From sequence record PQ352352.2: a stretch of 64,000 nucleotides of DNA; one strand, written 5' to 3'. Positions 39,725-40,122 of the stretch are shown piece after piece (position 1 is the stretch's first letter; each line of letters starts with the position of its first letter). Source of the stretch: Escherichia phage vB_EcoM_PTE-Eco15. The translations under genes were made by a program, and so were the position numbers. Under the pieces are notes generated by a model. The model worked only from the letters and a program-made list of their open reading frames with translations, made no database searches and had not been told where the DNA came from.

Positions 39725-40122
39725 TTTACTGGAGATTCACTGCCTTAGTGTGAGCTAAAATCGAGGAGCCGTCGAACTGTCTGATTAATGATTTGCGAAT
39801 CATTATAGTTTTAAGACCCCGGCAGTTTTACGGTGTACCTCTTGAATGTTATTCTTATAGCGGCAAGTGCATGCTACCCCGAGGTGATGGCCAATCGGGA
39901 GTACGCCTCAAGGCCTATATATCCATCAGTATATATCTTATCCTCGAGAAATCGAACCCGGAACCTTTAAGCTAACGGTGTGCAACAGATAAGAGCTATA
40001 AGGTATGATGACGGATTTATGGTTATCCTGGTCGTTAAATATCCAAAAACCTATGTTCCCCTTGAGGGCTTGCGCAGGCAATGCCAATAAGTCCTGCATT
40101 TTCATTTAAAAGAGAATTTATA

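Follow-up and report, generated by a model that had tools for sequence, protein, structure and literature searches.

Few viruses have been studied as thoroughly as T4 and its relatives, and the question raised by one of them is what is encoded in the 398 nt that separate its genes rIII and 30.9 (positions 39725-40122). The analyzed window comprises 64,000 nucleotides of a T4-like coliphage, Escherichia phage vB_EcoM_PTE-Eco15 (PQ352352.2), and the gap within it is 99.7% identical to phage slur03 and relatives. A first-pass annotation had described this gap as a GC-rich non-coding island with several perfect inverted repeats, and had considered a small structured RNA, a long 5' UTR of the basic protein gene downstream, or the remnant of a mobile element. 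Its observations were confirmed in part, and its interpretations are supported in part. A convincing ORF is indeed missing: the ORFs in the gap do not exceed 60 aa and none is conserved across 19 homologues. The G + C content of 42.2% lies above the window mean of 35.7% (97th percentile of 398-nt windows), but this enrichment is only modest; the RNA core described below has a G + C content of 47.6% (99th percentile), with several coding stretches elsewhere in the window being equally rich or richer. Only one of the inverted repeats is perfect (TAATGATT/AATCATTA at 39786-39793 and 39798-39805), the other three pairs being imperfect, and its actual loop has the 4 nt TGCG, one base less than the spacer TGCGA that had been quoted. 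This hairpin forms only the tip of a long, lineage-specific hairpin (module E; Table 1), which is a minor part of the gap, and the main structure at 39854-40002 had not been singled out.

On the + strand of the window, the order is gene 31, rIII, the 398-nt gap, 30.9, a terminator-like hairpin, and 30.8. No Pfam family was found for either rIII or 30.9, and the PHROG of the latter lacks a function; thus, the neighboring genes offer no functional lead. The motif TATAAATA between gene 31 and rIII equals the T4 late-promoter consensus and is the likely source of late transcripts that would run through the core RNA. Expression of rIII from early, middle, and late promoters has been reported for T4 (PMC9409239). 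Promoter-like sites of the sigma-70 type were not found within 39725-40122, the nearest ones being located at 39501 (inside rIII) and at 40354. Sites resembling T4 early promoters occur at 40354-40382 (TTTACA-17-TAGTAT) and 40746-40773 (TTTACT-16-TATTAT), before 30.8 and the next gene; together with the terminator-like hairpin after 30.9, they indicate that 30.9 closes its transcription unit. A 31-bit Rfam match to Atu_C8 at 40255-40338 was discarded, as it merely represents this terminator hairpin.

Table 1. Features of the rIII-30.9 region and of the second locus. Positions are those of the window unless a sequence handle (L) is given.
Feature	Position	Strand	Description
Gene 31	38993-39328	+	
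Late-promoter motif TATAAATA	39329-39336	+	T4 late-promoter consensus, upstream of rIII
rIII	39476-39724	+	Lysis-inhibition accessory protein, upstream neighbor; nucleotide sequence 100% identical to T4 rIII
Module D	39731-39756	+	GGAGA, then hairpin UCAC/GUGA with loop UGCCUUAGU
Module E	39763-39841	+	Long interrupted hairpin GAGG-A-GCCGU ... ACGGU-GUA-CCUC
Core (C)	39854-40002	+	Structured RNA cassette, ~145 nt; RNAalifold on MAFFT alignment and covariance model
P1	39854-39861 with 39995-40002		Extent in the window; 5 bp family-wide (39857-39861 with 39995-39999)
P2	39862-39864 with 39913-39915	+	
Conserved strand AAGUGCAU	39865-39872	+	Unpaired, P2/P2a internal loop; family pattern AAGNGCAU
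P2a	39873-39885 with 39890-39906	+	Bulged A
P3	39916-39922 with 39929-39935	+	
P4	39936-39942 with 39988-39994	+	
P5	39944-39947 with 39952-39955	+	GAAA loop
P6	39956-39960 with 39976-39981	+	
Most conserved block	39961-39987	+	15-nt P6 loop GAACCUUUAAGCUAA, P6 3' strand CGGUGU, junction GCAACA
Module A	40007-40051	+	Hairpin, then CGUUAAAUAUCCAAAAAC
Module B	40055-40072	+	GU(A/U)CCC-loop-GGGCUUG, short hairpin with conserved flanks
Module F	40074-40107	+	Hairpin GCAGG...CCUGC, then AUUUUCAUUU (U-rich run), just 5' of the 30.9 ribosome-binding site; read from sequence
Gene 30.9	40123-40299	+	58 aa, very basic; PHROG 1427 (no assigned function); downstream neighbor
Terminator-like hairpin	40303-40324		Strong, 3' of 30.9
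GUUGCCAUAGGCAAGACAAAUC cassette	L087 and L088 about 3150-3290; L092 about 3215-3400		Second locus, at the position of the core
Candidate micro-ORF stretch	L078 about 1690-1789; equivalent positions of L076, L084, L094		Second locus, 3' of module B

According to sequence comparison and covariance modeling, the + strand of 39854-40002 encodes an RNA domain of ~145 nt that is predicted to fold on its own, referred to here as the core. Its fold consists of seven helices arranged around a four-way and a three-way junction. The closing stem P1 leads into the four-way junction of P1, P2/P2a, P3, and P4, where P2a extends P2 across an internal loop, and P4 opens into the three-way junction with the GNRA-capped P5 and with P6, whose loop of 15 nt is nearly invariant. 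Of the eight positions of the unpaired strand in the P2/P2a internal loop, seven are invariant in an alignment of 13 sequences that covers both types of locus in which the core occurs (invariant columns 13-15 and 17-20). The most conserved block follows the family pattern GCUAAYRGUGUGCAACRG, is invariant or nearly so in all members, and served as pattern for sequence scans. In Escherichia phage EcS1 (L032 1199-1358), a 7-nt insertion makes a small GCC-UAU-GGC hairpin inside the otherwise nearly invariant P6 loop; the loop segment concerned therefore probably lies on the outside of the fold.

The fold was initially predicted by RNAalifold on a plain MAFFT alignment of 14 sequences. Compensation in hairpins was apparent in the first alignment, where UCGA-GAAA-UCGA is replaced by CCGA-GAAA-UCGG or CUGA-GUAA-UCAG, and AUAUAU/AUAUAU by AUACA/UGUAU or AUUCA/UGAAU. 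The covariance models R1/R2 assigned a score of 183 bits to the window (at 39853-40003). The model built from the first alignment found Serratia phage PS2 (153 bits), EcS1 (105 bits), and Yersinia phage fHe-Yen9-01 (101 bits), and a second group scored 73-83 bits, comprising Yersinia phage JC221, Slopekvirus (phiEap-3, CPRSA), and Pseudotevenvirus (Citrof4, GAP161). Compensatory base changes across T4-like genomes, for which the first-pass annotation had proposed to look, were found in the resulting comparison: in an alignment of 19 sequences, 97.6% of the pair cells contain standard pairs, both sides have changed in 32 of 44 pairs, and such double changes are present in each helix. The observed pairing and double changes were matched by none of 500 shuffles, and only 27-43% pairing was obtained in a control with the 3' partners slid by 1-3 columns. 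Because the 19-sequence alignment had been fitted to the model, the test was repeated on an independent alignment. MAFFT and RNAalifold applied to 13 diverse sequences recovered P1, P2, P3, P4, P5, and P6, with 22 of 35 pairs being compensatory; P2a was blurred in this alignment owing to misplacement of its indels by MAFFT.

Across the helices, 39 cells in 13 pairs are G.U and none is A.C, and the tetraloops read GAAA or GUAA on the + strand. Both observations identify the RNA as the + strand, which is the sense of the flanking genes. The folding energy of the single sequence is unremarkable (z = -1.7), and the structural evidence therefore rests on covariation. Covariation in every helix, the fixation of G.U pairs to one strand, and the conserved unpaired nucleotides together lend strong support to a small structured RNA, the first of the three interpretations proposed earlier. 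A search for pseudoknots among the conserved columns yielded a single candidate: GCAUGCU (39869-39875) can pair with GGUGUGC (39977-39983) over 7 bp in at least 90% of the sequences. P6 and the base of P2a are in competition with this pairing, which shows no real covariation. The pairing may reflect an alternative conformer or a tertiary contact linking two invariant junctions, or arise by coincidence from conserved strings rich in G and U.

When the gap was compared by blastn with 50,697 phage records, 993 of them matched, but just 179 did so over at least 80% of its length. The core is carried by 403 phage records (395 at a coverage of at least 80%), which represent phages of Escherichia, Shigella, Klebsiella, Enterobacter, Yersinia, Serratia, and Erwinia, and none of the carrier records listed annotates it as an RNA. 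Phages of Klebsiella, Enterobacter, Erwinia, and Serratia share only the middle segment of the gap with the window, at 85-96% identity and always between rIII and 30.9. The reverse situation is found in T4, whose gap of 244 nt lacks ~150 nt in the middle that are exactly the core, while the flanking genes compared are 99-100% identical to those of the window. The core is also absent from Tegunavirus TG1 and phiR1-RT, Winklervirus Virsaitis27, and several uncultured relatives. Where present, it is more conserved than the flanking genes. Its identity to the window is 100% in JS98, 96% in Klebsiella phage Roth21, 93% in Enterobacter phage VIPECLOM01, and 87% in Erwinia phage COW86c; in the same order, the values are 80, 68, 70, and 70% for gene 31, 85, 74, 73, and 74% for rIII, and 77, 89, 77, and 77% for 30.9. 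This pattern suggests purifying selection at paired and unpaired positions, but the identity across genera could instead reflect recent transfer.

A second locus harboring the core is the convergent gap uvsY.-2/uvsW.1 of Slopekvirus, Pseudotevenvirus, and phage JC221. At this site a late-promoter motif lies directly 5' of P1 (TATAAATA in phiEap-3, CATAAATA in JC221, and AGTAAATA in Pseudotevenvirus). About 200 nt downstream, there is a terminator-like hairpin with a U-run. The core at the rIII locus has no adjoining promoter, and the downstream sequences at the two loci are unrelated. In the KP15-like sequence L084, TATAAATA is followed directly by module B without a core. Thus, the late-promoter motif is a property of the locus, with the core inserted into a presumably transcribed spacer; transcription is likewise presumed for the spacers holding the core in general. 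Judged from these comparisons, the core is an optional cassette that resides in sense orientation in non-coding spacers of T4-like enterobacterial phages, at two sites, and that appears to be dispensable and exchanged between genera.

Two further observations concern the uvsY locus. In RB16/RB43-like and related contigs, the place of the core is taken by another conserved non-coding cassette (GUUGCCAUAGGCAAGACAAAUC...), located after the same late-promoter region. In addition, a stretch 3' of module B with the translation ..LLRRP(M/I)EFTFG(G/E)VI(D/G)(N/K)IPS..stop varies mostly at third codon positions, which suggests an unannotated micro-ORF of 20-30 aa; it has no obvious start codon or SD sequence, and hairpins could partly explain the pattern. 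In Pseudotevenvirus, a credible ORF was not found between the core and the terminator-like hairpin.

No true member was detected in the bacterial genomes scanned or, outside the T4-like phages, in the viral and metagenome contigs scanned. A blastn comparison of the core with 5,426 complete E. coli genomes remained without a match. When 185,579 genomes of bacterial and archaeal species were scanned with a gapped pattern, seven matches were returned, a number close to the chance estimate, and none of these was a member according to the model. The metagenome scan retrieved close relatives only, along with four chance matches, and the four new matches from a degenerate-pattern scan of viral contigs were all attributable to chance.

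The Rfam covariance search suggested in the first-pass annotation revealed no matching family among the 4227 models of Rfam 15: nothing was found at E<=10 (cmscan) in the core of the window, phiEap-3, and fHe-Yen9-01, and the JC221 core gave only a 13-bit chance match to a miRNA on the opposite strand. The classes of self-cleaving ribozymes (hammerhead, twister, twister-sister, pistol, hatchet, HDV-like, hairpin, and glmS) were likewise without a match at this threshold, and ARAGORN detected no tRNA or tmRNA in the whole window. Three local resemblances found no support. The 9-nt string GUGCAACAG resembles the conserved J11/12 (CR-II) strand of bacterial RNase P RNA. The strand topology differs, since the string in the core runs from the 3' strand of P6 into that of P4; the RNase P models gave no match at E<=10, and a match of 9-10 nt is near chance expectation. 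Mimicry of an anticodon loop by the loop CUUUAAG was dismissed because the flanking bases cannot form an anticodon stem, and an 11-nt GAAA-receptor (UAUGG/CCUAAG) in module A because the motif is not conserved.

Among RNAs of the T-even phages, rnaC (species 1) and rnaD (species 2) of T4 are comparable in being small (119-139 nt), stable, and without an assigned function, but they are located in the tRNA cluster and are present in T4. Kinship was rejected, as model R1 run with filters off found no match on the T4 tRNA region that holds both. T4 rnaC (L083 1409-1547) ends in a tRNA-like T arm, CCGGGUUCGAAUCCCGG, and is unrelated to the core RNA. The optional group I introns of T-even phages (td, nrdB, nrdD) resemble the core as structured RNA cassettes that are patchily distributed among close relatives and nearly identical across phages; unlike them, the core is intergenic instead of being located in a gene, lacks an ORF, and does not match the intron model Intron_gpI. 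To our knowledge, its 145 nt are also fewer than those of any known group I intron. Short non-coding modules situated at indel boundaries in plastic regions of T4-like genomes, and presumably shuffled by recombination, are known as PeSL cassettes (PMC2839356, PMC4122927). These consist of an early promoter and a terminator stem-loop, whereas the gap has no match to a sigma-70-type promoter and the core is a seven-helix fold. Orphan structured ncRNA motifs that comparative genomics has revealed in bacteria and phages, as in the Weinberg/Breaker surveys (PMC2864571) and a viral survey (PMC10690425), share with the core the GC-rich intergenic island in an AT-rich genome, covarying helices, invariant junctions, and the lack of an assigned biochemical function; the core differs in falling outside all Rfam 15 models. 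A 2010 review of T4 states that no riboswitch or trans-acting small RNA has been characterized in this phage. A full-text literature search found no description of the core RNA, although an unnamed earlier prediction in the lists of a 2023 viral survey is possible.

The explanation favored here, and in our view a rather probable one, is that the core is transcribed together with rIII and functions as an autonomous protein- or ligand-binding RNA domain that is independent of the downstream gene, and not as a leader specific to 30.9. The RNA would be made within the rIII-30.9 message, including late transcripts starting from TATAAATA, and its invariant junction and loop nucleotides would be the site at which a protein or a small ligand binds. 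Whichever gene follows, the RNA would work in a trans-acting or ribonucleoprotein mode and would be maintained by purifying selection and by exchange between co-infecting phages. A role in host takeover or counter-defense may be envisaged, an idea that derives purely from the accessory and laterally exchanged behavior of the core. Two findings count against autonomy, namely the position of the core upstream of a small gene in the window and the possible micro-ORF 3' of the core in Slopekvirus and JC221. A more far-reaching version is put forward only tentatively: the core may represent a new functional RNA class of T4-like phages, namely a new ribozyme, or else an aptamer or decoy for a host factor or signaling nucleotide, which would aid takeover or evasion of defense and spread horizontally as an RNA-level accessory "gene."

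Independently of its function, the core RNA is a previously unannotated family of complex structured RNA in very well-studied phages. It is strongly constrained, surpasses the neighboring protein genes in conservation, and occurs in about 400 sequenced phages, many of which are candidates for therapy. T4 is a natural near-isogenic knockout, with near-identical flanks and the cassette missing, so that the function can be tested directly by genetics. If the core proved to be an RNA-level accessory or counter-defense factor, it would be a new type of player in the conflict between phage and host, and non-coding cassettes would be swapped between phage genera as genes are.

The strongest competitor of the autonomous domain is a cis-acting leader, that is, a riboswitch-like sensor or a processive antitermination element controlling read-through into, or translation of, the sequence downstream (30.9, or the micro-ORF at the uvsY locus). 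This corresponds to the 5' UTR of the basic protein gene proposed in the first-pass annotation. Riboswitch aptamers and antitermination RNAs such as EAR and HK022 put are, like the core, compact multi-helix domains in sense orientation with invariant junction nucleotides, and the covarying stems of the core do resemble an aptamer. At the rIII locus, all members have the core 5' of 30.9, and hairpin F with its U-rich run, as well as a hairpin that may sequester the SD sequence, are placed between it and the start codon of 30.9. The alternative 7-bp pairing described above competes with P6 and P2a, and the third-position-biased changes 3' of the core in Slopekvirus, JC221, and L094 are consistent with an ORF of 20-30 aa. 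However, a consistent 5' UTR position before functionally related genes, as is typical of riboswitches, was not found, since the core has no constant downstream gene and is optional beside the same gene. T4 and many relatives retain 30.9 and the leader hairpins proximal to it without the core; in T4, these include hairpin F with its U-run and the SD-proximal hairpin. The distance from the core to the start of 30.9 amounts to 120-190 nt and is occupied by modules of variable order, and the same RNA recurs in a convergent gap with unrelated downstream sequences, where nothing credible is encoded downstream in Pseudotevenvirus. No riboswitch or leader family of Rfam matches the core. The 5' UTR interpretation is weakened by both the T4 comparison and the second locus, and we regard a cis-acting role as unlikely.

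An element of RNA processing is even less likely than a leader and appears quite improbable. It could be a new self-cleaving ribozyme, an RNase recognition structure separating the rIII and 30.9 messages, or a block to 3'-exonucleases that protects the upstream mRNA. At both loci, the sense orientation and a position that is intercistronic or 3'-terminal within a transcription unit would fit such a role, as would the compact multi-helix fold with invariant unpaired nucleotides. Against this, the core matches no model of self-cleaving ribozymes, RNase P, or tRNA-like structures, a simple stabilizer would not need ~40 invariant unpaired positions, and T4 expresses the same genes and can dispense with the element.

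The remnant of a mobile element that had been suggested originally captures one aspect of the core correctly: the clean indel relative to T4, the 100% identity across genera, and the two loci of insertion characterize a cassette that is optional and exchanged laterally. The core is no decaying remnant, as its pairing is kept by compensatory changes and its sequence is better conserved than those of the flanking genes. A selfish or neutral DNA cassette without any RNA function (MITE-like, or a hitch-hiker of a homing endonuclease), with P1 as terminal inverted repeat, would explain the presence and absence between near-identical genomes and the 8-bp inverted repeat at the ends. Yet this terminal repeat covaries like all internal helices (the five shared P1 pairs show 2-4 standard pair types each, for example A-U/G-C and C-G/G-C), G.U pairs are confined to one strand, the orientation always follows local transcription, and neither target-site duplications at the borders nor a second copy in the window were found, so that such a cassette is highly improbable.

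Least credible of all, and practically negligible, is a short protein-coding gene, as annotated in several GenBank records with ORFs of 41-44 aa (for example XNO93669.1 of Roth21 and COW86c_228) and conceivable from window ORFs of 45 and 60 aa with GTG/TTG starts: in all 19 homologues each of the six frames holds at least one stop within the core and no frame is open through the element, whose length of 148-160 nt varies by indels that are not multiples of three, the variable columns are distributed over the codon phases without periodicity (35/33/35), and the substitutions are pairwise compensatory. For these reasons of stops, non-triplet lengths, and missing periodicity, the annotated "hypothetical proteins" are very probably artifacts. 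Labels found over the core are "hypothetical protein," "1,4-alpha-glucan branching enzyme," and "terminator" (PQ657794 with XNO93669.1, PP597396 with COW86c_228, MN508817 with JC221_170, MZ170040, ON720975, and OL960580), and all three are probable mis-annotations.

The remainder of the 398-nt gap is a chain of the smaller hairpin modules D, E, A, B, and F, all of which are also present in T4. Module D has a compensated stem, UCGC/GCGA with loop UACCUUAGU, in other phages and at the second locus of JC221. Module E is shared with T4 and JS98, and a shorter variant in L039 retains the outer stem. The position of module A varies, as it is located 3' of the core, 5' of it (Klebsiella phage Roth21), or near the terminator-like hairpin (uvsY locus). 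Module B is common to both locus types, can also be written as GUNCCC-loop-GGGCUUG, and differs in its loops (UUGA, GAAA, UUGU, or UUCGA). Module F was not flagged by a simple terminator scan, and a longer GGGAGC...GCUCCC hairpin takes its position in other genera. One copy each of modules D, A, and B exists in the window, and these recur in varying order in other genera and at the uvsY locus. The rIII-30.9 and uvsY.-2/uvsW.1 spacers are thus mosaics of hairpin modules (D, E, A, B, F, and a GUUGCC-GNRA-GGCAAG module) whose order and presence differ between genera, as seen in the window and in L002, L025, L032, L035, L039-L043, L076, L078, L084, and L087-L094. On this account, these modules look like shuffled RNA building blocks.
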